From a virus: a stretch of 64,000 bases of DNA. Positions 1-52,739 of this stretch are shown one piece after another; position 1 is the first letter of the stretch; every line of letters begins with the position of its first letter. The stretch covers positions 64,001-128,000 of the IMG/VR virus record IMGVR_UViG_3300045988_125846; one strand, 5' to 3'. A program made the translations under genes and the position numbers. The notes under the pieces were generated by a model. The model did not search any database and was not told the DNA's origin. It saw only the letters and a list, made by a program, of their open reading frames with translations.

Positions 1-354
1 TCTACTCTCAGCATCATAAATTGTGACCGTCACAGCAAGAGTCTCATAGTCTGATGGGATTTTATCAAGTTTAATCTTAATAACCTCATCATCTCCATCT
101 CCCTCACCTGTACGGTTATCTCCCATATGCTTTACACTTTTTGAACTATGTTCAAGATTACCATAGAAAATAAAATCCTCATCCTTGCCAACCTTGCCAT
201 TCTCTTTTGTCATAAACACAGAGGCATCGAGATCAAAATCTGCTTCTCCGTCATAATGATTAATATCCCATCCAAGTCCAACAAGAATGTTTTTTAATGA
301 CGGTCTACCCTTTGTTAAATCTACTCTCTGTCCTTTACTTAACGAAACTGACAT
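1..354 (-). CDS. terD: TerD-domain protein (3' end of the gene lies outside the window)
   Basis: Not in the ORF track because it runs off the edge. Own translation from the ATG (rc of 352-354): MSVSLSKGQRVDLTKG..GLGWDINHYDGEADFDLDASVF..GDNRTGEGDGDDEVIKIKLDKIP. It is colinear with the two paralogs downstream. Confidence 0.8.
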   Translation of the reverse strand, partial: MSVSLSKGQRVDLTKGRPSLKNILVGLGWDINHYDGEADFDLDASVFMTKENGKVGKDEDFIFYGNLEHSSKSVKHMGDNRTGEGDGDDEVIKIKLDKIPSDYETLAVTVTIYDAESR

Positions 355-366
355 AATTAAATCCTC

Positions 367-942
367 CTACTTGTATCTTCTTGTTAATTCGCTAACACTT
401 GAATCATTTGTTCCCTGACCGATAGCGTTAAATTTCCACTCTCCGTCTTTCTTATAAACTTCTGCAAATACCATTGCTGTCTTGCCAGCATAATCATCTG
501 AAAGATTGTATTTACAAATTTCCTTACCAGTTGACTCATCAACAAGTCTAATGTACGCATTCTTGATAAGTCCAAAATCCTGCTTTCTTGAAATACAATC
601 ATAGATATTTACTACAAATACAATCTTCTCAACCTTATTTGTAATATTCGCAAGATCAACGGTAATCTGCTCATCATCACCGTCTCCATCTCCTGTGAGG
701 TTGTCACCATGATGATACACACATCTGTCTTCCGCTGATCTGTCACCATAATAAACACATGTACGATACTTATCATCTTTTCCTAAAATAATTGCTGAAG
801 CATCGCAATCAATGTTTGGCTTAGAACCAAATAATCCTTTCTTAGCAGCATCCCATCCAAGTCCTACCATAATCTTTGTAAGACCACCTGCTACTTCCTT
901 AGATAAATTAATTTTCTGTCCTTTTACTAAATTTACTGACAT
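367..942 (-). CDS. terD: TerD-domain stress protein
   Basis: 191 aa with VNLVKGQKINL..GLGWD..DCDASAI..GDNLTGDGDGDDEQITVDL (acidic Ca-binding loop) and a GEWKFNAIG tail. GGAAGGAG RBS upstream. Confidence 0.85.
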   Translation of the reverse strand: MSVNLVKGQKINLSKEVAGGLTKIMVGLGWDAAKKGLFGSKPNIDCDASAIILGKDDKYRTCVYYGDRSAEDRCVYHHGDNLTGDGDGDDEQITVDLANITNKVEKIVFVVNIYDCISRKQDFGLIKNAYIRLVDESTGKEICKYNLSDDYAGKTAMVFAEVYKKDGEWKFNAIGQGTNDSSVSELTRRYK

Positions 943-960
943 ATATATTCTCCTTCCATT

Positions 961-1539
961 TTATAAATCAAGACCAAAATTTCTACCAATAGCAGCTAAA
1001 CCACCATTGTAACCTGAACCAACTGCATTAAACTTCCATTCACCGTTCTTACGATACAACTCACCTGCAATAACACCTGTCTCTAATGAGAAATCCTCAT
1101 TAAGTTCATATTTGAAAAGTTCCTCATTTGTATCAGCGTTGTATGCTCTAATGTACGAATTATCAACCATTCCGAAATTCTGTAAACGATTTTCTGCATC
1201 ATAAATTGTCGCTGAGAAGCTAATCTTTGTAATATTAGATGGAATCTTATTTAACTCAACAATCATTGTCTCGTCATCGCCATCACCTACACCTGTTCTA
1301 TTATCACCAGAATAAATCAATGCTCCGCTTGGATGCTGTGGCTGACCATAAAATACAAAATCCTGTTCGCCTGTTACCTTTCCTGAATCATCAGTAAAAA
1401 ATGCTGATACATCCAAATCGAAATCTGCATTACCATCGTATCTATTTGTATCCCATCCAAGACCAAATACGACTTTGTTTAAACCTGCATTGCCTTTTGT
1501 AAGGTCAATCTTCTGACCTTTAACTAAACTAATTGACAT
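961..1539 (-). CDS. terD: TerD-domain stress protein
   Basis: Start moved to MSISLVKGQKIDL (AGGAGG 8 nt upstream of the ATG at 1539). Contains GDNRTGVGDGDDETMIVEL and GEWKFNAVG motifs. Confidence 0.85.
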   Translation of the reverse strand: MSISLVKGQKIDLTKGNAGLNKVVFGLGWDTNRYDGNADFDLDVSAFFTDDSGKVTGEQDFVFYGQPQHPSGALIYSGDNRTGVGDGDDETMIVELNKIPSNITKISFSATIYDAENRLQNFGMVDNSYIRAYNADTNEELFKYELNEDFSLETGVIAGELYRKNGEWKFNAVGSGYNGGLAAIGRNFGLDL

Positions 1540-1732
1540 ATTGTTTGTCCTCCTTATTCTTGGGAAGGCTGTCAACCTTCCCTTTTAATAATTTAAAAGA
1601 AATTGGGAATGTGAGTAACGTCAGAAAAATAAATGGAATAAAGCGTGTAATACATGCTACAACAACACTAATTGAAAAACATATAAGAGTAATAATCTCT
1701 ACTTTTTTATAACTTTTATCTCTCCTTATCAT
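1529..1732 (-). CDS. small hydrophobic (membrane) protein
   Basis: 67 aa with two hydrophobic stretches (IITLICFSISVVVACI, FIPFIFLTLLTF). GGAG RBS. Sits between the ATPase and TerD genes. Confidence 0.5.
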   Translation of the reverse strand: MIRRDKSYKKVEIITLICFSISVVVACITRFIPFIFLTLLTFPISFKLLKGKVDSLPKNKEDKQYVN

Positions 1733-1748
1733 GTTCTCATCTCCTCAA

Positions 1749-4349
1749 TTACTTATTCTCTCTTTTCTTCTCAATAATCTTTCTAATAAGATCAATTGGA
1801 ATAACCATAAAGGCTAAAATTACAACTACTACCCAATGTTTGAAATCTAAAGCTGTGACCTTAATAAGATTTTCTGCAAAGTTGCAAAGAGCAAATGTCA
1901 TTGCAAAAATTCCGATTGCAATGGCTGAAAATAACTTATTCTTTCCAATGCCATTGAATAAATTAATATGCTCTGTACGAATATTAAATCCATTAAATAC
2001 TGCCATAAAGCATAACAATGCGAATCTCGCTGTCATAGCTTCTGTTTCAGATGCAAACATATTTGCAATTGGGCTAAATGTAATAATTCCATAGAGTACA
2101 ATAAATGCTACTGTACTAATCGCAATACGTTTCTTTGCTCCTCTAATGAATAAGCCAGAACCTTTCTTAATAGGTTTCTCTGTCATATACTCATCTTTTG
2201 GTGGTTCACCACCGAATGATAGTGAATTAAGGGAATCCATAATGATATTTACAATCAGAATCTGAACTGAAGCGAGTAATGCACCTGTTGCAATCATTGG
2301 ATAGATAACACTGAGAATCAGAAGTGAAATATTAATAGGTAACTGGAATTCAAGGAACATCATAATATTGTGCATAAATGTTCTTCCAAGTTCTACTGCC
2401 TTTACTACGCTTGCAAAATTATCATCTGTCAATACAATGTCTGAAGCTTCTTTTGCAACATCTGATCCACCTTGCATACCAAAACCAACATCAGCTCTCT
2501 TTAAAGCAGGACTATCATTTACTCCATCACCTGTCATTGCAACTGATTTTCCAATCTCTTGTGCTAATGTGACAAGTCTGAGTTTTGTGTTTGGTGAGCA
2601 TCTTGAAATAACTCTCAATCGAGGAATTATACTCTTTACTTCATCATCTGACATCGCTTCAAATTCATCATTTGTAAGTGCTAAATCTCCATCTTTGTAA
2701 ATTCCACACTCTGTAGCAACTGCAACTGCTGTCTCAATACAATCGCCTGTAATTTCAATAACTTGGATACCAGCCTTATGTGCTATTTTTACTGCACTCG
2801 GTACTTCATCTCTTACAGGATCTACAACACCGATAATTCCAAGGAATGTCATGTCATTTGGTATTTCATTCTCTACTAAATCACCATCTGCCATTGTAAC
2901 TGCAATACATCTCATCGCATTACTTGTCATCGCTGTAATTGCATTACTTAATGTATCATTGTCGTTATTCTCTACAATTTCACCACTTGAGTCCATTACT
3001 TTTGTACAATGCTCAATCAATTTCTCAGGTGCGCCCTTATAGTATGTAACTCCATCCTTTGTCGTAAAAGCTGAATACTTATTACTACTATTAAATACCT
3101 GCTTTAACTTAACTGGATATTTTTTCTGAATGTCAGCATGTGTTTCAGGATTTACAAGGCTAAGAACTGCTCTATCAATTGAATTACCACCTGTAATATT
3201 GTTTTCTGAATCAAATGTTGCACTATTATTTAAAGAAATGTTTGCCTCGATATTATTCCAAAGAACCGAATCCTTATTTACATCATTACCAAAGCCATCA
3301 ATAATCTTCTTTGGAGTCATAATACCTGTCGTAAGAGTACCTGTCTTATCAGTACAGATAATATCAACATATGCTAACTCTGGAATTTTACCAGGATTCT
3401 TAGCAAGAATATTGAATTTCTCCATTGTCTTTACATTCTGTTTTGTTACAAGTTTTACAATAAGAGGCAATCCTTCGGGAACAGCAGCTACAATAATTGT
3501 TAATGCTACTGAGAAGTTCTGTGCGATTTTCTGAATAATATTCAGAACGCCACCGCTAAAATATTCTCCAAATCCAACCTGTACAATTCCTGAAATTGTA
3601 AGCACCGCAAATGTAATAACGGCTGCGATTGTTCCCCACTTAGAAATGAAGTCGCTCAGATTATCAAGTGCAATATCAAGTGCTGTCTTTGGTGCTTCAA
3701 GTGTTTGCATTTTAACAAGCGTATCGCCATTTACTGTATTCACACCTACATCAGTAACAATCATTTTTCCTTCGCCTGACATTACTGTTGTGCCAGCAAA
3801 TAAGCAATTCTGATTCGTATAAGCATCTGTTGAAGTAGTTTTCTTATGAACGTATCCTTCAATTGGTGTTTTCTTACACTCTTTTGTTTCTCCATTAATA
3901 GCTGCATTGTTTACAGAAATCTTACCTTCAATGAGATATCCATCTGCAAAAATCTCTTGTCCCATTCCTACACAAACAAGATCACCAACTACCAATTCAT
4001 CCTTATTAATTGTTTGAACTTTGCCATCACGAATTACGTCACAATACCTGACTGATGTTTTGGCTCTCAACTCTGCTGCTGATTTTTGAACACCAAGTCC
4101 AGTCTTAACAGCAATACATGTTACAATTGCTAATACAACAAGAATCATAATTGGATCTGATAAATCCATTACTCCCATGACTCCAAGGAATAACTGCAAT
4201 ACTGCAATTGCAATAAGAATCATTGTGATTTTCTCACTTAATGCCTCCTTTGCGAAGTCATACCACTTGTCCAACTTTGGTTCAGGAAGCTTATTACTTC
4301 CATGAAGCTCTCTACTTTTGAGAACTTCTTTACTACTCAATCCATTCAT
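1749..4349 (-). CDS. P-type (P2, Ca2+-type) cation-transporting ATPase
   Basis: 866 aa with the ICTDKTGTLT phosphorylation site, the VPEGLP TM4 motif, the MTGDGVNDSPALKRADVGFGM hinge, a cation-ATPase N-terminus (LSSKEVLKSRELHGSNKLPEPK) and multiple TM helices. Confidence 0.9.
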   Translation of the reverse strand: MNGLSSKEVLKSRELHGSNKLPEPKLDKWYDFAKEALSEKITMILIAIAVLQLFLGVMGVMDLSDPIMILVVLAIVTCIAVKTGLGVQKSAAELRAKTSVRYCDVIRDGKVQTINKDELVVGDLVCVGMGQEIFADGYLIEGKISVNNAAINGETKECKKTPIEGYVHKKTTSTDAYTNQNCLFAGTTVMSGEGKMIVTDVGVNTVNGDTLVKMQTLEAPKTALDIALDNLSDFISKWGTIAAVITFAVLTISGIVQVGFGEYFSGGVLNIIQKIAQNFSVALTIIVAAVPEGLPLIVKLVTKQNVKTMEKFNILAKNPGKIPELAYVDIICTDKTGTLTTGIMTPKKIIDGFGNDVNKDSVLWNNIEANISLNNSATFDSENNITGGNSIDRAVLSLVNPETHADIQKKYPVKLKQVFNSSNKYSAFTTKDGVTYYKGAPEKLIEHCTKVMDSSGEIVENNDNDTLSNAITAMTSNAMRCIAVTMADGDLVENEIPNDMTFLGIIGVVDPVRDEVPSAVKIAHKAGIQVIEITGDCIETAVAVATECGIYKDGDLALTNDEFEAMSDDEVKSIIPRLRVISRCSPNTKLRLVTLAQEIGKSVAMTGDGVNDSPALKRADVGFGMQGGSDVAKEASDIVLTDDNFASVVKAVELGRTFMHNIMMFLEFQLPINISLLILSVIYPMIATGALLASVQILIVNIIMDSLNSLSFGGEPPKDEYMTEKPIKKGSGLFIRGAKKRIAISTVAFIVLYGIITFSPIANMFASETEAMTARFALLCFMAVFNGFNIRTEHINLFNGIGKNKLFSAIAIGIFAMTFALCNFAENLIKVTALDFKHWVVVVILAFMVIPIDLIRKIIEKKRENK

Positions 4350-4478
4350 CTGTTTTACTCTCCTTTTCTATAATTTTTATATATGAATGTTAATTAGTTA
4401 CATATCTATATTCTCTTTTTAATTTGGGAATTTTATTGAGCTGAATCGCTCAGAAATTTTTTACAATGAAACGAAGTT

Positions 4479-4979
4479 TTACTTTGATTTTTTATTTAAA
4501 ATTTTTATAGCTAACTCTTTTAATTCTTCTGTCAACCCATGCTTATATGTTGTTTTAATAAAGTGGTCAGTATTTAAAAACTCACACATATCTGAATCAT
4601 CATCTAATATAATAAAATTATCAACTGGATTCTTTGACAACCATTCTCTAATTTCATCCCCACGTTGAGTATCGCCACTCAAAGATGGAGTAATATCATA
4701 CACCTCTATATCATAATCAGATAATCTACTAATTAGTTTTGTGTACAATTTATTTCCAAAAATACTTTCTTTACCACTTCTATCACAACCAATTCGCCAA
4801 GAGGATGACACAACAATTTTTGCGTTTGTTTTGTCAATTATTTCTTTTAATAATTTTAGAGGTCTATCCTCCACTTCCGCATATAATATACATCCCGTAA
4901 TATTATTCTTTGCTCTATAAATCAGCAAGTCATCCTCAGAATTGAGTACACCATCTACATCTAAAAATATAACCTTCAT
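4479..4979 (-). CDS. small HAD-superfamily phosphatase
   Basis: 166 aa with FLDVDGVLN (DxD motif I), VVSSSWR and IILDDD motifs. Confidence 0.65.
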   Translation of the reverse strand: MKVIFLDVDGVLNSEDDLLIYRAKNNITGCILYAEVEDRPLKLLKEIIDKTNAKIVVSSSWRIGCDRSGKESIFGNKLYTKLISRLSDYDIEVYDITPSLSGDTQRGDEIREWLSKNPVDNFIILDDDSDMCEFLNTDHFIKTTYKHGLTEELKELAIKILNKKSK

Positions 4980-5016
4980 TCTTTCACCTCTCTTCCCAAG
5001 AAATCGAACTTTACTG

Positions 5017-5331
5017 TTATTTATCTACAACAACTATCTCTTTGCCACAATAAGGACAATATTTTAAATTTGCCATATTTTCAGGTATCCTCCAATATGG
5101 ATCATCAGCATCGTCATGTTCTTTCGGGCAAATCGTTCTATAATCGTATTTTATCCATTTACAAGTTTGTATTTCCTCGTATCTTCGGAGTACAACATTT
5201 CCTCCGTCAATAAATATTTCCATTGGCTCACCAATTGCGTCTGCTTTTCCAAACACCAGTCTTCTAATTTCCTTTGGAATTACTATTCTACCTAAGTCGT
5301 CAAATCTACGAATTGTTCCCATAATTTTCAT
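5017..5331 (-). CDS. AbrB/SpoVT-type DNA-binding protein with a C-terminal Cys motif
   Basis: RRFDDLGRIVIPKEIRR is the swapped-hairpin AbrB signature. The C-terminus carries CPKE..YCPYCGKE. Confidence 0.7.
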   Translation of the reverse strand: MKIMGTIRRFDDLGRIVIPKEIRRLVFGKADAIGEPMEIFIDGGNVVLRRYEEIQTCKWIKYDYRTICPKEHDDADDPYWRIPENMANLKYCPYCGKEIVVVDK

Positions 5332-5523
5332 CTTTCACCTCTCTTCTAAAGAAACGAACTTTATTTTGATATTTCTATTTTAATTTCTGTTCATTTACCA
5401 TTTTTAATAATGGAATAATCCAACTCAGAACGAGAAGAATGTCATTTGGATATTGATTCAGCCATAGAAATGAGATACTATATATGTATATCGACTTCTG
5501 GATTATTCCTAGTTGATATGCGA

Positions 5524-5562
5524 GATGGGCAACAGCAACTTCACGACATATCGTTGCCCATC
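5524..5562. other. perfect 10 bp stem hairpin (GATGGGCAAC/GTTGCCCATC)
   Basis: Read directly. The T-run (TTTT) lies on the plus-strand side only. The hairpin is just downstream of the minus-strand gene 5598-7805. Confidence 0.35.
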
Positions 5563-5597
5563 TTTTATGTAAAAGCTATTGCTTATTACCAAATTGA

Positions 5598-7805
5598 TTA
5601 CGCATTTGCTATAAAATTATCAAAGCTGCGTTTCATATATGTATAATTAACTTTCTGTGATGAACTAAAATCAGATTTATTTCTGTAATTCTCAATCCAT
5701 TTTTCAAAATCCTGATCCTTATCATTTTGACAAGCATATGCCATGAGTGCTACTAATGCCATTCCACACTCTTTATAAACTGGATCGTCAATCTTAACAC
5801 AATCTTCTACCATGTCTGTGTAAAGGTTTATATCTTCGTCTGTCACATTTGGATTTGCATTTTCTTGAACAAAGGAAAGAACACTTTCTTCCGTATTTTC
5901 TTCAGCACTTTCTTTCGTATTGTTATTCTCCAATTCTGTGTTATTTACTTCTCTTGTACCAATATGTAAAAATTCATTCATCAGTTTTATAAGTAAATCA
6001 ATTTTACCTGTAATAGTTGCCTTTTTCTTTGTCTGTTGGTCTTTAAAATCTGCCATAGATACACCATCAACTTCTTTATCTTTAAGTTCTGTATTATATG
6101 CTCTTAAGAAATCAATGAATCTTGAATCTTCAATATTATATGTAGTAAATTTATCAAATACTGCAATCCACATTGGCATTGTAGTTGGAGTAAGTAATGA
6201 CTTCAAGTCTTTATTGTCATCGCCTAATGCTAATTCCAATCTATTAAAATGTGAATTAAGTTTTAAGAACTGCTGTTCTGTTGCATTTTCATCAACATAT
6301 TTGTAAATTGTATCAAGTTTTGCTTTCCATGAATCACGGAAGAACATTAACATTATTGATTCTGCAACAACACGTTCCAACTTTCCCTTAATAACATTAT
6401 TATCTGTAAACTTCCCACAATTTTTAAAGAATGTGTTTTTCTGTGAAATATTTTTAATATATCCCGCTGTCTGTGCAGATACATTAAGAAAACCACCCTG
6501 TTCCTTATTCATACTCGCATGATTGTTATAATCACGAATATGATCTGCAATCTGCTCATCTGTACAATCAAAGAATTTTGTTACGTTTATATTGAAATTA
6601 TTGAATCGTTTCTTTAACTCATCAGGAAGATCTTTATAATATTTCCCTATAACATCAAATATTTTCATCTCATATTCTGGTAAGCCATCTTCATCAAGTA
6701 CACGATTTCCATTATCATCTAAGACATAATCTCTATACTGAATTAAATGTCTCTCTGCTCCTGCTGAACCAATCTTAATACGATTTTCCTTGAATGCCTC
6801 AGCATATGAAAGTCTCTGCAATCCGTCAATTAAATGAGAGATTGTCAATCCCTTTTTCTTCTGTTCACAAAGAATAATTTCTGGAATAGGAAGATTACTA
6901 AGAATACGACAAAAATATCTATTCGCTTCTTCTGTAGTCCACTGAAAAGGTTCACGTTGCAAGATGTAGTTGCAGTTCACGTCTCCATTTTTCTTATCCT
7001 GTAACAACGAATACATGCTATACTTGTCCGTCCTGTAATTTTCAGATTCGCTAATTTCAATAATTCTGTCTTCCATATTATTTACCTCCACATCATAATT
7101 CCCATCATTTTTATTCTTTGAAAATACTGAAAGTCCTTTATTTATCTTAATTGACTTCATAGCACTACTATATTCTCTGTCTGATATATTCAATTTTTGT
7201 TTTATATTATCAGCAGGAACATTCTCCATCCGCATCAGCAAAATATTTTTTTGTATCCTCGGCAAAGAATCAATAAAATTATCAACTTTTTCATCGGCAC
7301 TAAAATCGAACTCACTCTTGTCTTCTACGTTAAAGTCAGATGCAATTTTTTCTACTAAATCATTATCTTCTTCAGTAGGTGCATCAAATGAAGTATCTGG
7401 AATAATAACTGGTTTTCCTTTATCGTCATCTGTTACATTTCCATTTTTATCAACCTTTACTATCTTTCCATTTTTATCAGTTAATAGATTTTTTCTTTTA
7501 CATCTCTGATAGTTGTCTCTATACCAGTCAATAACAGATTTTTTAATATTATTAATAAGGTAAGTTTTAAAACTCGCACCTTGAGATGAATCAAAGTTGA
7601 TAACACTTTCCATCAGAACATTCATTGCATCATCGTACAATTCGTCATGTTCATGTGCTGGAATCCCATACCTGAAAAATGCATTGTAACTAATTTTCTT
7701 CAATTTTGACATATCATTTACACAGTATTCAGTAATCCATTCCAACTGTTGTGATGAAAGATTATTTAATTTTTCACGCAATATTTCGTCTTTCACTTCA
7801 TGCAC
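5598..7805 (-). CDS. sigma-70-like N-terminal module fused to a DUF262 (ParB/GmrSD-type) domain
   Basis: 735 aa with a GTG start. Region-2-like FKTYLINNIKKSVIDWYRD and region-4-like LPRIQKNILLMRMENVPADNIKQKLNISDREY. Further on, LQREPFQWTTEE....HLIDGLQRLS matches the DUF262 signature. Confidence 0.6.
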   Translation of the reverse strand: MHEVKDEILREKLNNLSSQQLEWITEYCVNDMSKLKKISYNAFFRYGIPAHEHDELYDDAMNVLMESVINFDSSQGASFKTYLINNIKKSVIDWYRDNYQRCKRKNLLTDKNGKIVKVDKNGNVTDDDKGKPVIIPDTSFDAPTEEDNDLVEKIASDFNVEDKSEFDFSADEKVDNFIDSLPRIQKNILLMRMENVPADNIKQKLNISDREYSSAMKSIKINKGLSVFSKNKNDGNYDVEVNNMEDRIIEISESENYRTDKYSMYSLLQDKKNGDVNCNYILQREPFQWTTEEANRYFCRILSNLPIPEIILCEQKKKGLTISHLIDGLQRLSYAEAFKENRIKIGSAGAERHLIQYRDYVLDDNGNRVLDEDGLPEYEMKIFDVIGKYYKDLPDELKKRFNNFNINVTKFFDCTDEQIADHIRDYNNHASMNKEQGGFLNVSAQTAGYIKNISQKNTFFKNCGKFTDNNVIKGKLERVVAESIMLMFFRDSWKAKLDTIYKYVDENATEQQFLKLNSHFNRLELALGDDNKDLKSLLTPTTMPMWIAVFDKFTTYNIEDSRFIDFLRAYNTELKDKEVDGVSMADFKDQQTKKKATITGKIDLLIKLMNEFLHIGTREVNNTELENNNTKESAEENTEESVLSFVQENANPNVTDEDINLYTDMVEDCVKIDDPVYKECGMALVALMAYACQNDKDQDFEKWIENYRNKSDFSSSQKVNYTYMKRSFDNFIANA

Positions 7806-7815
7806 CTGCCTTACT

Positions 7816-7998
7816 TCATTTCCTTTTTCTGTCTAACTCTCTATACAAATATTCTCCAAAACTCAACTCATTATCATTGATTTTTATATGTCGTGTCTCT
7901 GAACAACATTTCGGACAACGACAGAATTTCTCATGCTTGTCCTTTGAGAACGACATAACTCCAATCATCGGAATATAACAATTTTTACAAATCACCAT
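7816..7998 (-). CDS. zinc-ribbon protein
   Basis: Start moved to MVICKNCY (AGGAAGGA RBS). Contains CxxC...CxxC (CKNC, CPKC). Confidence 0.55.
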   Translation of the reverse strand: MVICKNCYIPMIGVMSFSKDKHEKFCRCPKCCSETRHIKINDNELSFGEYLYRELDRKRK

Positions 7999-8011
7999 AT
8001 ATATCCTTCCT

Positions 8012-8629
8012 TTACAAATCAAACAGCTCGTTCATTACTCGTGGTTCATATGTACGCTTATCCATTTTCGACATGGATTCCAAAATCTCATTTGTAACTG
8101 TGTCAGAAATCTTTTTATCAAGAATAATGTTAAGAATTTGTATCTCATTTTTAATACTTCTTCTTTTTATTCTCCGTTCCTTTATCATCTTATATGCTTT
8201 CCATCCTTGTGCTGCATTAAGATTGCAAAATTCTATATAATGATTGATATCGGATAATTCCCTATCTACAAAGCTAAGTTCTTCACACAACTCTTCTTTT
8301 CTATGTAATGCATCTGTTGCTAATCCGTTAAGATCAGTTATTTTGTCAATCCATTTCTGGATATTTTCAGCAACCATAACTTTTTCAGTATTATTTTCCA
8401 CTTCTGATTGTGTAATCTGTTTTACATTATCGGGTGGGGTATCAATTTTCTGGATATGAAATACTGATTTCAAGGCTTTGGGTAGCGAGTTATTATATAG
8501 ATTATTGGCTGCTTTATTTGAAAATGTATCAGCCAATGCCTCGCAAGATGTTGGAACATATTTACCATTACGATTTCTCATAATCCAACGAGAACCGTCT
8601 GTAATTACATATTGTGCCAACGTAATCAT
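8012..8629 (-). CDS. hypothetical protein
   Basis: 205 aa ORF co-oriented in the array with a coiled-coil-like C-terminal half. No motif recognised. Confidence 0.6.
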   Translation of the reverse strand: MITLAQYVITDGSRWIMRNRNGKYVPTSCEALADTFSNKAANNLYNNSLPKALKSVFHIQKIDTPPDNVKQITQSEVENNTEKVMVAENIQKWIDKITDLNGLATDALHRKEELCEELSFVDRELSDINHYIEFCNLNAAQGWKAYKMIKERRIKRRSIKNEIQILNIILDKKISDTVTNEILESMSKMDKRTYEPRVMNELFDL

Positions 8630-8654
8630 CTCCTCTCTTTGTTTGATTTAGCAA

Positions 8655-8728
8655 TGGATCATCAGAGACTTGAACTCTGAGCCTTTCGGTTATGAGCCGA
8701 ATGCACTAACCAATTGTGCTAATGATCC
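8655..8728 (-). tRNA. tRNA-Met (CAT; elongator Met or Ile2-type)
   Basis: rc folds as GGATCAT-TA-GCAC/GTGC-TTCGG[CTCATAA]CCGAA-CAGAG[TTCAAGT]CTCTG-ATGATCC-A, a perfect cloverleaf. Confidence 0.9.
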
Positions 8729-8892
8729 AAGTCGCTGACACTATCGCAAGTTTATCAGGAAGTTCTATAGTATCAGCTTGTAATCCGTTAGTGGATCAGG
8801 CTATGGTAGAACTATAGCAACTACACATTTTGCTCTTACAATGATTAATTCTTGCGTTCTGCGATAGAACCCGGTCTGGAAGTATCGCATAG

Positions 8893-8964
8893 CAGGGCAT
8901 ATCAGATTCGAACTGACAAATTTCGCAGTCAAAGTGCGATGCCTTACCGCTTGGCGAATGCCCT
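8893..8964 (-). tRNA. tRNA-Gln (TTG)
   Basis: rc reads AGGGCAT-TCGCCAAGCGGTAAGGCA-TCGCA[CTTTGAC]TGCGA-..GTCAG[TTCGAAT]CTGAT-ATGCCCT-G. The D-arm is identical to the canonical bacterial tRNA-Gln. Confidence 0.9.
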
Positions 8965-9028
8965 ATAATATTATTTCCATATTTAATTGTGTAACTTAGG
9001 AATTTTAATTGCAGAAAACGCTTGAAGC

Positions 9029-9057
9029 TTGACTTTCTTTCGAAATATATGTAAAAT
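9029..9057 (+). promoter_or_regulatory. sigma-A-type promoter (TTGACT-17-TAAAAT) facing rightward inside the leftward tRNA leader
   Basis: Hexamers and the 17 nt spacer were read directly. The promoter is bracketed by the inverted repeat CGCTTGAA (9020-9027) / TTCAAGCG (9062-9069). A T9 run lies at 9170-9178. Confidence 0.35.
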
Positions 9058-9194
9058 AAATTCAAGCGATATTTCGCTTCTGCAATGGCTTAATGCTGTT
9101 GTATGTATTTGGTTTGATAGAGTCAAGTAGAAAGCTGTTGGCGCAGCGTTTGAATCGCTTGGCTCTATCTTTTTTTTTATTATTTACGAAAATT

Positions 9195-9223
9195 ATAATA
9201 CTCCAAACATTTGTTCTTGTCAA
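9195..9223 (-). promoter_or_regulatory. sigma-A-type promoter (TTGACA-17-TATTAT) upstream of the tRNA-Gln/tRNA-Met pair
   Basis: rc of 9195-9223 reads TTGACAagaacaaatgtttggagTATTAT. Confidence 0.45.
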
Positions 9224-9295
9224 CGCATTTCCAGAACATTCGTTCGAGATTTGTTCGTTTAATATTTTTATTATATAATACTTCAAGTCCTATAA

Positions 9296-9547
9296 TCAGG
9301 ACACTATTTGGGGAAACTTAATATTATGCACAATAAATTCCTGCACTCCATCCAGCGAAAGCAACCCAAAAAAGTCATTATCTTGATAATTAATTGTGTT
9401 TGCCCTATTTATTATTCGCTTTCCTTCATCAACAGTTATCTGTCTTGGTCTTGTATGGATAAAAGTCATACCGTTGAAGGAATCAACCCATATTTTGCCA
9501 GGTGTTTCATCAATCATTTTTTTTGCTATTTCTTTATCTACATACAT
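9296..9547 (-). CDS. hypothetical protein (overlaps the stop of the MazF-like gene by 1 nt)
   Basis: 83 aa, translationally coupled (ATGA overlap) to the upstream toxin-like gene. Confidence 0.55.
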   Translation of the reverse strand: MYVDKEIAKKMIDETPGKIWVDSFNGMTFIHTRPRQITVDEGKRIINRANTINYQDNDFFGLLSLDGVQEFIVHNIKFPQIVS

Positions 9548-9927
9548 TATGCCATTACCTCCTCAAGCTTGTAGTCTGTTCCAAAAAATAAAGAATTAAA
9601 GCATACTTTATCTACCATTCTTTTATTTTTATCATCAGTAATAGTTCCAATTTTTGAGATCACTTCATCTTTTGAGATTGTTGTGATCTGCTCACCTAAC
9701 GCCATAGAATATAATGTTAATCCATTATTTTCATTTGCTTGAATACATCCATGACAAGGCATGTTTGTCTTTTTAATCTTACTTGTCAAAGGCATCACTG
9801 TTATAATCGGAGCATATTTCGTACCCAATGGATTACTTACTATTACATAAGGTCTTTCATTCGCTTGTACCGAATTTCCTTCATAATTGATTTTTGCCTT
9901 TATTATGTCGTATCTCTGTAAATCCAT
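9547..9927 (-). CDS. mazF: MazF/PemK-family endoribonuclease toxin homolog
   Basis: RYDIIKAKI..NERPYVIVSNPLGTKYAPIITVMPLTSKIKKTNMPCHGCI..ISKIGTITDDKNKRMVDKV aligns by eye along the whole length of B. subtilis EndoA. GGAGGAG RBS. Confidence 0.8.
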   Translation of the reverse strand: MDLQRYDIIKAKINYEGNSVQANERPYVIVSNPLGTKYAPIITVMPLTSKIKKTNMPCHGCIQANENNGLTLYSMALGEQITTISKDEVISKIGTITDDKNKRMVDKVCFNSLFFGTDYKLEEVMA

Positions 9928-10480: not shown

Positions 10481-11461
10481 TCACATCTCCATCAATTTCT
10501 CTTTCATTCCCACTGCACCATTCGCATAGTTATTAACTGTTGTATTTACACTACTATGTCCAAGCTGTTGCTGCACGAATGCAAGATTTCCATTCTGATT
10601 CATTACACTGGCATAATAATGTCTCATCATATGTGGAGTAATACCATTTCCATAATTCTCAAATATCTGTTTGATATTTCTTTCTGTTGTACGTGTACCA
10701 TTTTTATTTACGAACACAGCTTCTTTGTCTACAATATTATTCAATGTATTTCTGTACTCTAGCCATTCTTTTATAGCTTTTAAAGCAGATCCGCTAAGAT
10801 ATACCGTTCTATTTTGCATTTCTCTGTACACACCTTTACCAAGAATAGTAATATATGGCATTTCTTCTTCTAAATGCAAATCAGATAAATCCAAGCCAGC
10901 AAGTTCAGACTCTCTTATTCCAGTCCCTCTTAAGACACGAAAAATAGCAATATTTCTATTTCTTACAGGAATATCCTTTTTCCACATTATCTTTTCTTCC
11001 ATATCATTAAGCTGTTTTTCTGTTGGAAGTTTTTTAGTTAAATTGTTTCCAGATGGAATTCCTTTATATGTTACATCTTTAAAGAATCCATCTTTAATTT
11101 CGGTTCCCTTCACTCTACTCATATAATCCCAAAAACTGCTTATAATATGTTTCCTGGTTTCCAATGTAGTTGGTGACATACCATTCTGTTCTTTAGTTTT
11201 CAAATATAATGTAATATCCTCTGCCATAATATCAGTAAAATCCGATGGCTCAATATCTGAAATATTTGTTTTATCAATAAGTTTCTCTTCAATAAACCAA
11301 TTGAGCAAATCTACAATAACTCCAAGATAATTCAATGCACCTGCTTTACTCTCTATTTTAACAGTGAAATATTTTCTCATATATATAGGAAGATTTAACT
11401 CATCTAACTTCCTATTGAGTTTTTCTGCGTTTTTATTTTGAACTTCAATTTTATAACACAT
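10481..11461 (-). CDS. tyrosine recombinase / integrase (XerC/D-like)
   Basis: N-terminal SAM-like core-binding region, RGTGIRESEL (catalytic R), HMMRHYYAS (H-x-x-R) and LGHSSVNTTVNNY (H..Y). Confidence 0.85.
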   Translation of the reverse strand: MCYKIEVQNKNAEKLNRKLDELNLPIYMRKYFTVKIESKAGALNYLGVIVDLLNWFIEEKLIDKTNISDIEPSDFTDIMAEDITLYLKTKEQNGMSPTTLETRKHIISSFWDYMSRVKGTEIKDGFFKDVTYKGIPSGNNLTKKLPTEKQLNDMEEKIMWKKDIPVRNRNIAIFRVLRGTGIRESELAGLDLSDLHLEEEMPYITILGKGVYREMQNRTVYLSGSALKAIKEWLEYRNTLNNIVDKEAVFVNKNGTRTTERNIKQIFENYGNGITPHMMRHYYASVMNQNGNLAFVQQQLGHSSVNTTVNNYANGAVGMKEKLMEM

Positions 11462-11466
11462 AATTA

Positions 11467-11748
11467 TCACTCCCTTGTGTAATCTGCTATCGCTTTTGCA
11501 ATAGCTTTAGCTGCTCTTTTACTTTTTAATGATTTCTGAATCGATTCTGTATTCCAAAAGACATCACTAAACTCAGCTAACTCACCACCGCAATTCCAAT
11601 TCGGAATACTAAAGAATCCTCCATTTACATATTCTCCGAAAATCACACTATAATAATTTCCATTATACTCAACACCTATATGGTGAATATTTTCAACATA
11701 AGTATCACCATTATAACTGATTTTATAATTTTCCATACTATATTCCAC
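11467..11748 (-). CDS. hypothetical protein
   Basis: 93 aa, co-oriented, abuts the integrase gene. Confidence 0.55.
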   Translation of the reverse strand: MEYSMENYKISYNGDTYVENIHHIGVEYNGNYYSVIFGEYVNGGFFSIPNWNCGGELAEFSDVFWNTESIQKSLKSKRAAKAIAKAIADYTRE

Positions 11749-50622: not shown

Positions 50623-51636
50623 ATGGGTAATTATAAAAGAAATGAAGAAAACAAAAAAGATAGTAATCAATGTGGAATTTATTCTATAACCAATAAATTA
50701 AATGGTAAAAGATATATAGGTCAAACCTACAATTTTAAATATAGATGGATGAGACATAGAAGTTATCTAAAGCACAATACTGAACACAATGCACATTTAC
50801 AAAATGCATGGAATAAATATGGTGCAGAAAACTTTGAATTTGAAATTATTGAAAGATGTAAATTTGAACAGCTAGATGAACGAGAAATTTATTGGATAAA
50901 CTATTATGATTCCAAAAATGCGGGATATAACTTTGCAGATGGTGGACTCGGATGTAAAGGTTATAAACACACTGATGAAGAAATTGCAAAAATGAGAATG
51001 ATTCAAAATCCTGAACCAATTGTAATGCTTGATCTAAATGGTGAGTATATAAGAACTTTCGTCAGTGCAGGTGAAGCATGTGATTTTTTAGGCAAAAAGT
51101 CAACAAGTGGAATTAAAAGATGTTGTGAAAAAGATAAATATAAAAAGGCTTATGGATATATTTGGATCTATGAAAAAGATTATAAATCAGGAAACATAGA
51201 TTGGAATTATTATTTATCTAAAAATAAAAATCTTCCTAAGCCAGTATTGCAATACAACTTTAATATGGAACTAATCAAAGAATATGCTTCTGCTTACGAT
51301 ACAAGCAGAGAAGGATTTAATTCTGCAACAGTATCGGCAGCTTGTAATGGTAAGTATGATACATATAAAGGTTATATTTGGATTTGGAAAGATAATCCAG
51401 AAATCTATTATAAAAATAAAGCCAAACGAAAAGAAAAGGCTTTAAATAATAAAAAAAGTAGAGAAAGAATTATTTTACAATATTCAAAAGAAATGGAATA
51501 CTTAAAAGAGTGGACTTATGATGAGATTTTAAACAATAATTTTAATTTAAGAGCAATTCAAAGCAATTGCTCTGGACATACAAAAACATCACAAGGTTAT
51601 ATATGGAGATATAAATCAGAAGAGTCGGTTGCTTAA
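50623..51636 (+). CDS. GIY-YIG homing endonuclease with three NUMOD-like DNA-binding repeats
   Basis: GIYSITNKLNGKRYIGQT..RWMRH..ENFEFEIIE..EREIYWINYY..GYN. Triplicated [YG]YIW[IR][YW]K repeats (AYGYIWIYEKD, YKGYIWIWKDN, SQGYIWRYKSE). Confidence 0.85.
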   Translation: MGNYKRNEENKKDSNQCGIYSITNKLNGKRYIGQTYNFKYRWMRHRSYLKHNTEHNAHLQNAWNKYGAENFEFEIIERCKFEQLDEREIYWINYYDSKNAGYNFADGGLGCKGYKHTDEEIAKMRMIQNPEPIVMLDLNGEYIRTFVSAGEACDFLGKKSTSGIKRCCEKDKYKKAYGYIWIYEKDYKSGNIDWNYYLSKNKNLPKPVLQYNFNMELIKEYASAYDTSREGFNSATVSAACNGKYDTYKGYIWIWKDNPEIYYKNKAKRKEKALNNKKSRERIILQYSKEMEYLKEWTYDEILNNNFNLRAIQSNCSGHTKTSQGYIWRYKSEESVA

Positions 51637-51680: not shown

Positions 51681-52739
51681 ATGGCTAAATTAATACAGCC
51701 TTTATCAGAACAAGAATTAAAGCAGGCTACATTAGTCAGTCTGCGCAAAGATTATGGTAAGCTATCCAATTTCTATCAAAGAATCATAAATGGGGAACTT
51801 ACACTTTGTCCTAAATGCGGTCAATGGAAATCCACAAAGATAAATTTTTATCAGTCAAATACGAGTCCTGATGGCGTAGAACATTATGGATGTCGTGAAT
51901 GTATCCTTAATGATTGTACAGATTATGACAAAGCCACAGATACAAGAATTGATAACAGAGAAAAAACGATTGAAACTTTTAAGCGTCTCAATTGGTATTT
52001 TGATGAAAATGTATATAATGACCAATTGAAAATATTAGCAGATGGTGTAGGTGAAAAGGTTCGTGGTACTGCCGCACAACAGTGGATTACTATTAGGGCT
52101 AGTCTTAATGACTATAAGTTTAAGACTTTTGCTGATTCCGTATTCTCAGATGAAGATGAAGAAACTTTGCAACTTACTTCCAAAAGATCACCTAGAAAAG
52201 AAATTATTAAAATATTCGGCTCAGGTTTTACATCGGAGGATTACTTGTATTTGCAAGATCAGTATGATGATTGGCGTAGTCGCACACAAGTTGATAGTAA
52301 ATCACAGGAAACCTACATCATACAGATATGTTTTAAGCAGTTAGAAATTTGGAAGGCGCAGAAAGTAGGAAAAGATACTGACAAATTAGTAAAATCATTA
52401 AATGACCTTATGAATGGTGCAAATTTACAGCCACGTCAGAATGTTGGAAACGCTGCTACTGACAGTCTTACTTTTGGACAGCTCATCGAAAAATGGGAGT
52501 TGGAGTCACCTATACCAGAAGCCCAAGGTGAATTTGCTGATCCAGATCATATTGGAAAATTTTTACGAGTATGGTTCAAGGGAAGCTTAATGCGAGCCTT
52601 GGGGTTGGATGGTGGTTATTCAAAAGAGTACGATGATTATGTCCAGAAATATACAGTTGAAAAACCTCAAAATATTGATGATGACGATTCTGTTGATGAA
52701 ACCATGTATGAAAAAGTATTTGGAAAAAACGAGGTCTAA
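51681..52739 (+). CDS. putative terminase small subunit / DNA-recognition protein (assigned by position)
   Basis: 352 aa, abuts the large terminase (stop and ATG adjacent). Zinc ribbon CPKCGQ..CRECI. Assignment is positional only. Confidence 0.35.
   Translation: MAKLIQPLSEQELKQATLVSLRKDYGKLSNFYQRIINGELTLCPKCGQWKSTKINFYQSNTSPDGVEHYGCRECILNDCTDYDKATDTRIDNREKTIETFKRLNWYFDENVYNDQLKILADGVGEKVRGTAAQQWITIRASLNDYKFKTFADSVFSDEDEETLQLTSKRSPRKEIIKIFGSGFTSEDYLYLQDQYDDWRSRTQVDSKSQETYIIQICFKQLEIWKAQKVGKDTDKLVKSLNDLMNGANLQPRQNVGNAATDSLTFGQLIEKWELESPIPEAQGEFADPDHIGKFLRVWFKGSLMRALGLDGGYSKEYDDYVQKYTVEKPQNIDDDDSVDETMYEKVFGKNEV

Follow-up and report, generated by a model that had tools for sequence, protein, structure and literature searches.

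A phage-borne gene unit combining a calcium-type P-type ATPase, TerD paralogs and a PspA/IM30-like protein in large phages of gut Clostridia

Introduction

What could a phage gain from three tandem terD genes encoded next to a calcium-type P-type ATPase? This question is raised by one end of a stretch of viral DNA of 64,000 nucleotides (positions 64,001 to 128,000 of the IMG/VR record IMGVR_UViG_3300045988_125846), here called the window. TerD is a Ca2+-binding protein, and an original prediction made from these letters alone proposed a phage-borne module of TerD proteins and a Ca2+ pump. We therefore analysed the identity of its parts, their packing and their conservation among related phages.

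Results

The cassette is a tightly packed unit on phage DNA

The window is phage DNA, as it encodes a terminase large subunit (52740-54512), a distantly SPbeta-like portal (54538-56130), an integrase (10481-11470) and 10 tRNAs. Near-identical ATPases were found in Coprococcus eutactus assemblies, and the carrier is a large phage of human-gut Clostridia (Bacillota). All the cassette genes that had been predicted were found in place, every one on the minus strand:

1-354, minus strand: 5' part of the gene for TerD paralog C (Pfam TerD profile)
367-942, minus strand: TerD paralog B (Pfam TerD profile)
961-1539, minus strand: TerD paralog A (Pfam TerD profile)
1529-1732, minus strand: hydrophobic protein of 67 aa (hydropathy)
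1749-4349, minus strand: P-type ATPase of 866 aa (TIGR01517 and Pfam profiles)
4350-4478, minus strand: intergenic region of 129 nt (sequence, hairpin)
4479-4979, minus strand: HAD_SAK_2-family phosphatase-like gene, 166 aa (PF18143, phrog_1818)
5017-5331, minus strand: AbrB/SpoVT-N-domain protein, 104 aa (TIGR02851, TIGR01439, phrog_4681)

The cluster runs past the left edge of the window, as anticipated: identical contigs (L001-L006), which supply the gene content beyond that edge, carry the rest of TerD C followed by a PspA/IM30-like gene. From the ATPase through the 67 aa ORF and TerD A, B and C to the PspA-like gene, successive gaps are 16, -11, 18, 12 and 9 nt, while wider gaps, of 129 and 240 nt, separate the unit from its neighbours; the predicted TerD spacings of 12 and 18 nt were thus recovered exactly, and the 17 nt given for the gap after the ATPase became 16 nt. 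Phage contigs of 160-190 kb (160-186 kb in IMG/VR) carry the cassette internally, flanked on the right by a sigma-like gene, the integrase and tRNAs and on the left, as the identical contigs show, by RlaP, a CCA-adding enzyme and genes of NAD salvage. About 5 kb from the module, the integrase is accompanied by genes for a PemK toxin and an HTH regulator.

The region at 4350-4478, upstream of the ATPase gene, contains a hairpin at 4436-4453 and is likely the operon boundary and promoter region; a search of the operon for promoters and terminators gave none callable with confidence. The same region ends a variable cargo slot, and upstream of this region gene content differs among otherwise near-identical genomes: at least 12 different genes occupy this hypervariable slot across 21 genomes with 98-99% identical ATPases. 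Both the HAD and the AbrB-like genes that had been placed upstream of the ATPase are indeed there. The proposal that the HAD phosphatase is a Ter-linked partner did not hold, since it belongs to the HAD_SAK_2 family (PF18143, E 2.5e-27), is just one of the slot's alternatives and is carried, among about 150 related loci, only by L001-L006 and L133. The 104 aa protein combines an AbrB/SpoVT N-terminal domain (TIGR02851, E 2.4e-12; TIGR01439, E 3.4e-5; both scores below the model cut-offs) with a Cys-rich C-terminal tail, and its gene was also rejected as a member of the conserved module, because it is present in few relatives (L012, partial; L017; L018; L120).

The ATPase resembles PMCA-type calcium pumps

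The predicted length and motifs of the ATPase (DKTGT at 334-338, PEGLP at 291-295 and TGDGVNDSPAL at 606-616) were confirmed, and Pfam matches cover E1-E2_ATPase, Cation_ATPase_N/C and Hydrolase. Beside the DKTGT aspartate D334, the protein keeps the Ca2+ site II residues E292 (PEGLP, M4), N701 and D705 (both M6), while acidic residues are missing from M5 and M8 at the positions of SERCA site I. The only equivalog model that it passes is the PMCA-type TIGR01517, by a margin of just 5 bits (512 against a cut-off of 507), whereas with the PMR1/SPCA-type model it reaches 404 of the 798 bits required. Its best solved relatives in the PDB (ACA8, SPCA1, LMCA1 and PMCA1/2) are all Ca2+ pumps; SPCA1 matches with an E value of 4e-91, but over the M5-M10 region PMCA and ACA8 match far better (E 1e-17 to 1e-21) than SPCA (1e-8). 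Judging from sequence, the ATPase is thus a predicted type IIB, PMCA-like pump with the residues of one Ca2+ site, in agreement with its original description as a P2 Ca2+ ATPase of the PEGL type; profile searches did not move it to a non-Ca subfamily, and its linkage to terD held. Sequence does not fix the transported ion, since Mn2+ too is carried by SPCA/PMR1-type single-site pumps.

Listeria LMCA1 (PDB 6zhf) and PMCA/ACA pumps share the domain set of the phage protein, a similar length (866 aa against about 880 aa for LMCA1), the DKTGT and PEGLP motifs, the M6 Asn/Asp of site II and the absence of an acidic site-I residue. Unlike them, the phage ATPase has NGET (152-155) in its A domain where TGES is canonical, lacks a calmodulin-binding autoinhibitory tail, and is encoded on a phage in linkage with terD and pspA-like genes.

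Right after the pump, the 67 aa ORF overlaps the start of TerD A by 11 nt; the overlap and its hydrophobic character had been predicted. Its maximum Kyte-Doolittle value is 2.4 (19-mer), and the protein probably has two TM helices. At least 38 of 79 loci encode it, as does, at 53% identity, the deep-branching variant L184; the protein is weakly constrained (dN/dS about 0.5) and had no match in Pfam, PHROG or PADLOC. Its membership of the module is optional, and it may be a pump-associated subunit.

Three TerD paralogs and a PspA/IM30-like partner

The three co-directional TerD genes with acidic Ca2+-type loops were borne out by Pfam TerD matches (PF02342; E 6.4e-46 for 1-354, 6.2e-68 for 367-942 and 4.1e-75 for 961-1539), by motif checks and by a full-length alignment of TerD A with the solved, Ca2+-binding Klebsiella TerD (PDB 2kxt, E 5e-57). 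The acidic loops, all intact, read GDNRTGEGDGDDE in TerD C (window positions 85-123), GDNLTGDGDGDDE in TerD B (670-708) and GDNRTGVGDGDDE in TerD A (1270-1308), each with an intact DxDxS motif upstream of it. The window holds the N-terminal 118 of the 193 aa of TerD C, the full gene being present on the identical contigs; TerD B has 191 aa and TerD A has 192 aa, with its ATG at 1539. TerD B is of the 'IDCDASAI / GxGTxD' subtype, which is a separate paralog in bacterial Ter clusters, and shares 53-58% identity with bacterial type-2 TerD, against only 42% with the phage TerD A.

A search of the window and of 10 kb to its left found no TerA/B/C/Z, TelA, YceG or vWA genes, some of which the original prediction had suggested looking for on the left; what lies there instead, 9 nt after TerD C, is the 249 aa PspA/IM30-like gene, which the original prediction missed and which is the most informative partner of the cassette. 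PspA and Vipp1 are membrane-repair homologues of ESCRT-III. The coiled-coil region of about 200 residues of the phage protein aligns to the Pfam PspA_IM30 profile (positions 26-219, 194/220; E 2.5e-6), with 27.7 bits, below the gathering score of 33.9, and Vipp1/PspA structures are the top PDB matches of its family profile (E 1.4e-4). It differs from these proteins in that an N-terminal TM helix stands where an amphipathic helix is usual; in its homologue from Bacillus phage G, gp247, TM helix and coiled coil are laid out in the same way.

The unit is conserved and under purifying selection

Across the roughly 150 related phage loci, the conserved unit consists of the ATPase, one to three TerD genes and the TM-anchored PspA/IM30-like gene, with the small TM protein and a vWA-TerF-like protein as optional members; the suggested survey for adjacency thus found TerD linked to the P-type ATPase in essentially every homologous phage locus. 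Among 79 loci retrieved via the PspA-like gene, the ATPase gene is present in 72. Six more lie on contigs that end early upstream, while the last, L112, has undergone a natural deletion that removed the ATPase and TM genes together with two TerDs and part of the third one; the module is thus dispensable for phage viability. The linkage persists in L184, whose ATPase is only 49% identical, and in an ATPase-vWA(TerF-like)-TerD-PspA variant. The single TerD of this vWA variant lacks the GDGDDE loop, which is at odds with a simple Ca2+-buffer role. Purifying selection is strong over the ATPase, the three TerDs and the PspA-like gene (dN/dS 0.01-0.11; 0.04-0.11 for the ATPase), and the architecture was kept even though ATPase alleles recombined against the downstream part.

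Discussion

Related arrangements in phages and bacteria

The original prediction considered a phage TerD-Ca-ATPase module uncharacterised, a view now outdated, since parts of it were reported in 2025-26 (PMC12880540; preprint PMC12363816) and 138 GenBank phage records carry TerD. According to the text of the article (Sci Adv 2026), Ca-translocating P-type ATPases occur in jumbo phages of the gut and in a further 85 phages, and the Jug phages of Bacteroides/Phocaeicola (Bacteroidota) highly transcribe three terD genes, one of them adjoining a pspA-like gene, together with a Ca-ATPase. As described there, these gut phages resemble ours in the Ca-type ATPase, the three terD genes, the terD-adjacent pspA-like gene and a small protein by the ATPase. 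They differ in that their terD regions and ATPase are separate transcription units and their small protein is upstream of the pump, whereas here one packed unit joins the ATPase, the small TM protein, all three TerDs and the PspA-like gene, in phages of about 160-190 kb with a distantly SPbeta-like portal, an integrase and Bacillota hosts. The main and supplement text of PMC12880540, as far as it was available, does not describe a contiguous ATPase-TerD-PspA operon; three contigs of the present family (L032, L081 and L169) appear in its huge-phage genome list, so the present ATPase family has probably already been counted there.

In bacteria, gut contigs carry PRTase_2/TRSP, StiP-PELOTA, C-C lyase, YceG, TelA and two or three TerDs followed by a P-type ATPase. 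Anantharaman, Iyer and Aravind reportedly described in 2012 Bacillota Ter stress-response clusters of the B. subtilis yceCDEFGH type, which likewise place several TerD paralogs beside a cation exporter of the membrane and a membrane-associated coiled-coil protein. The phage TerD subtypes match the bacterial paralog subtypes, but the phage module lacks TelA, YceG, StiP, PRTase, C-C lyase, TerB and TerC, its coiled-coil partner is PspA/IM30-like and not TelA, and its ATPase, just 30-35% identical to the Ter-linked bacterial one, is a separate lineage. Ruminococcus chromosomes devoid of TerD carry members of that lineage at 70% identity. Herelleviridae (Bacillus phage YungSlug, MT416612; Lysinibacillus LysYB1/2) are Bacillota phages too, with TerDs 54-56% identical to ours directly beside a divalent-cation exporter and a coiled-coil protein. 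Unlike the present phages, they are virulent myoviruses with two TerDs instead of three, a TerC exporter (PF03741) and no P-type ATPase, and their coiled-coil protein, of 359 aa and encoded upstream, gave no detectable match to PspA. TerD beside a cation exporter thus recurs independently in bacterial Ter clusters and in Herelleviridae, and the Jug phages, as their published text presents them, count as a third case.

What the unit may do

With moderate confidence, we propose a role for this operon in the management of calcium and membrane stress within infected cells. The functional ideas of the original prediction, namely a remodelling of host Ca2+ and envelope-stress physiology or superinfection exclusion, are still plausible. 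The operon's genes would be transcribed as one minus-strand unit, from about 4349 to beyond position 1; the PMCA-like ATPase, with its single Ca2+ site, would export Ca2+ from the cytoplasm, with the optional 67 aa membrane protein encoded next after it, while the three cytoplasmic TerDs may bind Ca2+ by their acidic loops as a buffer and/or sensor and the PspA/IM30-like protein, held at the membrane by its TM helix, may stabilise or repair it.

An unlikely alternative is that the module reproduces the classical ter-operon effects, in which other phages are inhibited and pore-forming colicins resisted, and does not manage Ca2+ as such, shielding the lysogen or infected cell from competing phages and membrane-damaging bacteriocins. 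TerD and, in relatives, the vWA-TerF-like protein are Ter-system components, the ter operon has been implicated in phage inhibition and colicin resistance (PMC8123226), a PspA-like membrane protector would suit defence against pore formers, and the module lies near an integrase, a regulator and a toxin and adjoins the hypervariable slot, a setting typical of lysogenic-conversion and exclusion genes. However, the operon that gives those phenotypes includes the TerB, TerC, TerA/Z and TelA genes that are absent here, the module proteins matched no PADLOC defence model except for a marginal PbeC coiled-coil match of the PspA-like protein, and such exclusion leaves the constant partnership with a Ca2+ pump unexplained. 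It also overlaps with calcium and membrane-stress management, as membrane protection could be how exclusion works.

We are more doubtful still that the ATPase exports Mn2+ or another divalent metal, so as to relieve toxicity in the cytoplasm or supply metal to secreted or phage proteins, in the place that TerC takes in a yceCDEF-like unit. The yceCDEF unit comprises three TerD genes and the Mn2+ exporter TerC/MeeF. Cultured Herelleviridae carry TerD-TerD-TerC (TerC PF03741, E 1e-52), the phage pump is of the single-site kind and the Ca2+/Mn2+ pump SPCA1 is among its best solved relatives; the TerC proteins MeeF(YceF) and MeeY export Mn2+ for metalation (PMC10550928). Against this stand the equivalog scores and the M5-M10 matches, both of which favour PMCA over SPCA, and an Rfam search upstream of the ATPase, which found no riboswitch, the yybP-ykoY Mn2+ riboswitch included. 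Lastly, that the cassette is passenger DNA (host chromosome beside a prophage, or a recent functionless capture) is hardly credible: near-identical ATPases do occur on contigs as long as 0.9 Mb and under a RefSeq Coprococcus eutactus accession, and the Ruminococcus copies sit in an ordinary bacterial context, but this reading is contradicted by the phage genes on both sides, the contig-interior position, the conservation across diverse phages and the purifying selection, and the Ruminococcus copies nest within the phage clade and not the reverse (NJ tree without bootstrap).

The operon is a new arrangement of parts that had all been known from phages before. If it manages calcium and membrane stress as we propose, its components would together hold down cytosolic Ca2+ and preserve a tight membrane in a Gram-positive gut host (Coprococcus and relatives), either as a fitness gene in lysogeny or during lytic growth, when it may keep the cell energised until lysis.

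The operon and its limits

Every gene in the first 33 kb of the window (1-33 kb) lies on the minus strand, and the genes in and around the cluster are, in the order of transcription:

7805-5598, minus strand: 735 aa sigma-70-like protein (sigma-70 region 2/ECF-like, TIGR02937, E 1e-10) fused to a GmrSD_N/DUF262-like region
5331-5017, minus strand: AbrB/SpoVT-N-domain protein, 104 aa (profile scans)
4979-4479, minus strand: HAD_SAK_2 protein, 166 aa (Pfam; PHROG phrog_1818)
4349-1749, minus strand: P-type ATPase, 866 aa (Pfam, NCBIfam)
1732-1529, minus strand: hydrophobic protein, 67 aa
1539-961, 942-367 and 354-1, minus strand: three TerD genes (A, B and C; Pfam TerD), the last cut by the window edge

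The original prediction had read the genes from AbrB to the TerDs from the bare sequence, and the Pfam, NCBIfam and PHROG scans, together with the motif positions, agree with it and uphold all assignments; the motifs that had been quoted (DKTGT, PEGLP, TGDGVNDSPAL and the acidic loops of the TerDs) were all found. The spacing is 129 nt between the HAD and ATPase genes, followed by 16 nt, an overlap of 11 nt, and gaps of 18 and 12 nt, so that the gap of 17 nt proposed at the ATPase becomes 16 nt, which is the sole correction to the observation. Since genes, gaps and quoted motifs were all verified, we consider the observation confirmed.

The cluster had also been expected to continue past the left edge, which it does on contigs L001-L006, identical to the window: TerD C is 193 aa long there and is followed after 9 nt by a gene encoding a 249 aa PspA-like protein, then by a 30 aa mini-ORF and by a 240-nt gap, beyond which lie unrelated phage genes (RlaP, CCA-adding enzyme, NAD salvage). 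The mini-ORF product is hydrophobic (MIVLNIGVFVICLGVCFGAGFIVGKRKKNK; 15336-15428 of L001); its gene overlaps the stop codon of the PspA-like gene and is annotated on several contigs. Because scans for promoter and terminator consensus sequences performed no better than on shuffled sequence, the limits of the operon were set by gap sizes only. An Rfam search of positions 1-9500 found no metal riboswitch upstream of the ATPase, its sole matches being two tRNAs. Altogether, the module is better defined than it could be from the window sequence alone.

The arrangement is conserved across related phages

We compared 80 IMG/VR loci retrieved via the ATPase, 79 retrieved via the PspA-like protein and 19 loci from species-representative genomes. 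The constant unit consists of the ATPase, one to three TerDs and the PspA-like gene. Among the PspA-retrieved loci, the architectures were ATPase-TM-TerDx3-PspA (n=41), where TM is the 67 aa protein, ATPase-TerDx3-PspA (n=27) and ATPase-TM-vWA-TerDx3-PspA (n=5), the rest including incomplete contigs. Another common form is ATPase-vWA-TerD-PspA, in which a 255 aa protein displays a clear vWA-TerF-like domain (PF10138, E 1.4e-59). The linkage is kept in a deep branch (L184) whose ATPase is just 49% identical to that of the window. Values of dN/dS ranged from 0.04 to 0.11 in the ATPase, from 0.01 to 0.09 in the TerDs and from 0.04 to 0.09 in the PspA-like gene, and came to about 0.5 in the 67 aa gene.

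In a natural deletion variant, L112 (IMGVR_UViG_3300045988_145941, about 5550-7000), everything from the ATPase through the 67 aa gene and TerDs A and B to codon ~54 of TerD C is missing, with a PspA-like gene that is still 99% identical, showing that the module is dispensable for the phage. The parts of the module also have different histories: when loci L036 and L065 were compared with L001, the ATPases were 78-86% identical (dS 1.3-1.4), whereas the TerDs and PspA-like proteins were 96-99% identical (dS 0.03-0.19), and the ATPase tree is discordant with the split between the TerDx3 and vWA-TerDx1 forms. Thus, recombination shuffled the parts while the arrangement persisted.

In the vWA-TerD variant, we also observed two short proteins of 57 and 63 aa, each with a single TM helix, encoded directly upstream of the ATPase (L074, 7449-7994; L103, 7803-7991), with similar C-terminal tails (...GKL..LY.IL...).

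A hypervariable cargo slot precedes the ATPase gene

The HAD phosphatase had been proposed to be associated with the Ter genes, a link that did not survive the comparison: a HAD gene (HAD_SAK_2/phrog_1818 family) was found in 7 of ~150 related loci, namely L001-L006, which represent the window's own strain, and L133. Few loci carry the AbrB-like gene. Across 21 genomes with ATPases at 98-99% identity, at least 12 alternative genes fill the position that ends ~130 nt ahead of the ATPase start. The position upstream of the ATPase is a hypervariable cargo slot, located between the sigma-like gene and the ATPase (4350-5600 in the window; about 7300-7900 in loci L010-L070), and HAD and AbrB are two of its alternatives. 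Since these two genes are not conserved and the content of the slot varies, we removed them from the module.

An element of ~35 nt (AAAGTTCG[T/A]TT(T)CTT..GAAGAGAGGTGAAAGA) is found on the minus strand at 4982-5016 and 5334-5366, directly before the HAD and AbrB start codons, and a weaker partial copy follows the HAD stop codon (about 4460-4478). It may mark cassette boundaries. As a cassette signal it was not retained, considering that it is not enriched elsewhere in the window (4 matches versus 2.8 expected). The 735 aa sigma-like protein (5598-7805, minus strand) matches the PADLOC model NsnA (E 5e-11), and its versions in related genomes are highly divergent (20-58% identity). Some 5-7 kb upstream of the cassette are a PemK/MazF-type toxin gene (9547-9927, minus strand) and a tyrosine integrase gene (10481-11470, minus strand), which flank an HTH regulator, and a second AbrB/MazE-like gene is found near 14.1-14.3 kb of the window.

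The cassette is carried by a large phage of gut bacteria

The window contains genes for a terminase large subunit (52740-54512), a portal protein (54538-56130), PhoH, a homing endonuclease, a tyrosine integrase and the PemK toxin, together with ten scattered tRNA genes. At least 159 related contigs were found in IMG/VR, many of which are 160-186 kb long with the cassette in their interior. That the cassette is phage-borne, as originally proposed, is thus borne out by the terminase, portal and integrase genes and by this interior position. The portal protein shares 27-29% identity with its counterparts in large Bacillota siphoviruses (Brevibacillus phage Sundance, SPbeta-like phages and 160-kb Bacillus phages). 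When window positions 1-8000 were compared by megablast with 50,697 GenBank phage records, no DNA match was obtained, so that there is no close cultured relative.

The exact ATPase is present on 19 contigs, and hundreds of metagenome contigs, up to 0.9 Mb long, carry near-identical copies. A near-identical ATPase is found in RefSeq (WP_173783507.1, Coprococcus eutactus), and the isolate Ruminococcus sp. AM36-2AA has a related copy in phage-like surroundings. Considering the phage genes together with these contig and isolate contexts, the element is most likely a large phage of gut Lachnospiraceae, putatively temperate.

Two features of the window are recorded here besides. The homing endonuclease gene is of the GIY-YIG/HNH type (50623-51636, plus strand) and precedes the terminase large subunit gene by about 1.1 kb, with a 352 aa gene (51681-52739, phrog_3314) in between. 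Transcription is organized in two divergent arms, minus up to about 33 kb and plus beyond; the sign of the GC skew flips there, and tRNA genes are found in both arms.

The P-type ATPase is a predicted Ca2+ pump

The ATPase passes the equivalog model TIGR01517 (PMCA-type) narrowly, with 512.0 bits against a cut-off of 507.05; this is the sole equivalog model that it passes, the other subtype models being far under their cut-offs. PEGLP is located at residues 291-295, DKTGT at 334-338 and TGDGVNDSPAL at 606-616, and DKTGT and TGDGVND are invariant in eight family members that share 72-100% identity. The A-domain motif at 152-155 is NGET instead of TGES: its first residue departs from the P2 consensus, the catalytic Glu is retained, and N152, G153 and E154 are invariant across the ATPase family. 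The first homologue search was filled by more than 120 entries at 99-100% identity, with no distant relative among them. Among proteins of solved structure, Arabidopsis ACA8, human SPCA1, Listeria LMCA1 and human PMCA1/2 match best, and the M5-M10 half alone favours ACA8 and PMCA; the calmodulin-binding extension is absent from the phage ATPase.

The ligands of Ca2+ site II are kept (E292 in the PEGL motif of M4, N701 and D705 in M6) and align with those of ACA8, PMCA1/2 and SPCA1. The positions in M5 and M8 that correspond to SERCA site I are not acidic, and the phage ATPase should for this reason transport one ion per cycle, as expected by comparison with PMCA, SPCA and LMCA1. From these features, our best call for the predicted ion is Ca2+.

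The TerD proteins carry putative Ca2+ loops

TerDs C, B and A score 156.6, 228.4 and 251.8 bits, respectively, with Pfam PF02342 (cut-off 25.3), and residues 1-191 of TerD A align to the solved TerD 2kxt (E 5e-57). Each of the three paralogs contains one GDNxTGxGDGDDE and one DxDxS motif, putative Ca2+ loops that align with 2kxt and 3ibz. A Ca2+-binding TerD structure (2kxt/2kxv) was reportedly described by Pan et al. in 2011. The GDGDDE motif is missing from the single TerD of the vWA variant (L074 and L103). TerD is annotated in at least 138 GenBank phage records and is widespread in bacteria too, where ter operons have known phenotypes.

The protein encoded last is PspA-like, with a predicted membrane anchor

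The 249 aa protein combines an N-terminal TM helix (hydropathy 3.3) with a long coiled coil. Its match to Pfam PF04012 (PspA_IM30) reaches 27.7 bits (E 2.5e-6) in the window family, where the coiled coil spans profile positions 26-219/220, and 28.6 bits (E 1.4e-6) in L074. Since both scores are below the gathering score of 33.9, we name it PspA-like and not PspA. A profile built from 13 diverse members gave weak but specific matches, the top four PDB entries all being Vipp1/PspA (E 1.4e-4 to 2.3e-4). PspA and Vipp1 are related to ESCRT-III. A homologue of the TM-anchored protein is gp247 of Bacillus phage G (28% identity, E about 1e-9 to 1e-23), whose gene follows those of an ABC transporter (permease and ATPase) and of a coiled-coil protein (gp243-gp247, 171533-174536); no TerD is found in this neighbourhood.

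Related modules combine other parts

Ruminococcus/Oscillospiraceae MAGs (L093-L102 and L104) encode a chromosomal ATPase that is ~70% identical to the phage pump; in L098 its neighbours are ordinary bacterial genes (BlaR1-type peptidase, TetR, CDF transporter, RsgA), with neither TerD nor PspA among them. An origin of the phage ATPase in Ruminococcus was considered, but the chromosomal copies nest instead within the phage clade of a neighbour-joining tree without bootstrap, which tentatively hints at transfer from phage to bacterium.

Two GenBank 'Bacteriophage sp.' fragments from human faeces carry TerD triples linked to a different P-type ATPase (30-34% identical). We rejected the record MT836648.1 ('UNVERIFIED: Bacteriophage sp.'; L008) as a phage, since it is bacterial chromosomal DNA with a MetRS fragment, MoaC, TatD, PGA_cap and a full Ter cluster (PRTase_2/TRSP, StiP-PELOTA, C-C lyase, YceG, TelA and TerDx3, then the P-type ATPase). 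When the 147 aa ATPase fragment of L008 served as query, all matches were fragments, one of which led to a second bacterial contig, L187 (YceG-TelA-TerD-TerD-ATPase). The paralog order is of type 1-2-1 in the phage, 1-1-2 in L008 and 2-1-x in locus L007, and the paralog subtypes are older than the phage. Capture of the TerD triple as one block from a bacterial Ter cluster was not adopted, given that the paralog order differs and that the neighbouring ATPase is of another lineage.

The cultured Herelleviridae YungSlug (131237-135649) and LysYB1 (71491-74650) encode a 359 aa coiled-coil protein, two TerDs that are 54-56% identical to those of the window, and a TerC-family membrane protein (PF03741, E 1e-52 and 6e-49) annotated merely as 'membrane protein' or 'hypothetical protein'. 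Judging from these several outside relatives, TerD adjacent to a divalent-cation exporter and a coiled-coil membrane protein is a recurring theme, a combination repeatedly put together from different parts.

Classical Ter systems contain TerB, TerC, TerA/Z and TelA/YceG, unlike the phage module, in which a vWA-TerF-like protein is found in some relatives only. By tblastn, the 64 kb window showed no match for TelA, YceG, StiP, PRTase, C-C lyase, TerC or vWA, and the 10 kb to its left contained no classical Ter-partner Pfam family, TerB and TerA/Z being judged there from Pfam lists only. Among the PADLOC-DB 2.0 defence models, none matched the TerDs, the ATPase, the TM protein or the vWA protein, and the PspA-like protein gave just a marginal match to PbeC (E 1.6e-4).

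A 2025 preprint and a 2026 paper on Jug phages, jumbo gut phages of Bacteroides/Phocaeicola, describe a highly transcribed Ca-translocating P-type ATPase, presented as the first in phages, which is co-transcribed with a small protein upstream and is also found in 81 other huge phages and in four phages of 159-197 kb; each Jug genome has three terD, one of which adjoins a pspA-like gene (PMC12363816, PMC12880540). The terD regions and the ATPase are described as separate units in Jug phages, whereas they form one contiguous operon in the window family, and the small upstream protein recalls the single-TM proteins upstream of the ATPase in L074 and L103. Three contigs of the window's phage family appear in that paper's list of huge phages. 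Our literature search found no description of a contiguous ATPase-TerD-PspA operon. All the components are known from the literature, as is their joint occurrence in gut phages; what is new is a fused, strongly conserved operon in Bacillota phages, and not a new category. The same three functions have been united independently in Bacillota phages and in Bacteroidota jumbo phages, and here they are fused in one operon.

What the operon may do

We give about even chances to a model in which the pump, the TerDs and the PspA-like protein together hold cytosolic Ca2+ low and the membrane sealed. The ATPase would export Ca2+, the TerDs would bind cytoplasmic Ca2+ as a buffer or sensor, and the PspA-like protein would protect or repair the membrane, so that cytosolic Ca2+ would stay low in a host living in millimolar luminal Ca2+; this action could take place in a lysogen or during the lytic cycle. 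A role in the exclusion of other phages and of bacteriocins, which overlaps with this model, seems to us rather unlikely.

Eukaryotic cells repair their plasma membrane through a Ca2+/ALG-2/ESCRT-III pathway. That the phage operon is a self-contained, Ca2+-triggered device for membrane repair is quite unlikely in our view: Ca2+ would leak in where the membrane is breached, be it by the entry of phage DNA, a competing phage, a bacteriocin or a holin acting prematurely; the TerDs would sense the leak and either recruit the PspA protein, ESCRT-III-like and anchored in the membrane, to the damage or activate it there, and the ATPase would expel Ca2+ and reset the signal. If true, the operon would be the equivalent, in prokaryotes and viruses, of the eukaryotic pathway, and TerD, whose role has been unclear for decades, would acquire a concrete job.

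We regard it as improbable that the operon is a unit for Mn2+ export and metalation. Mn2+ as the pumped ion may be compatible with the sequence taken alone, and the unit would be analogous to the TerD-TerC pairs, TerC proteins being Mn2+ exporters that metalate secreted enzymes (PMC10550928). Passenger DNA is an extremely improbable explanation, contradicted by conservation and selection.

The operon is a minimal, strongly conserved unit (predicted Ca2+ pump, putatively Ca2+-binding TerDs and PspA-like protein), free of the biosynthetic and TelA/TerB/TerC baggage of bacterial Ter clusters. With it, a connection of TerD to calcium and membrane integrity can be put to a direct test, and the module is a good experimental handle on TerD function. 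The finding complements the 2026 report on Bacteroidota jumbo phages. Given that this phage turns up very frequently in metagenomes of the human gut and that a copy is found in the butyrate producer Coprococcus eutactus, effects on calcium and stress in the host could matter for gut ecology.
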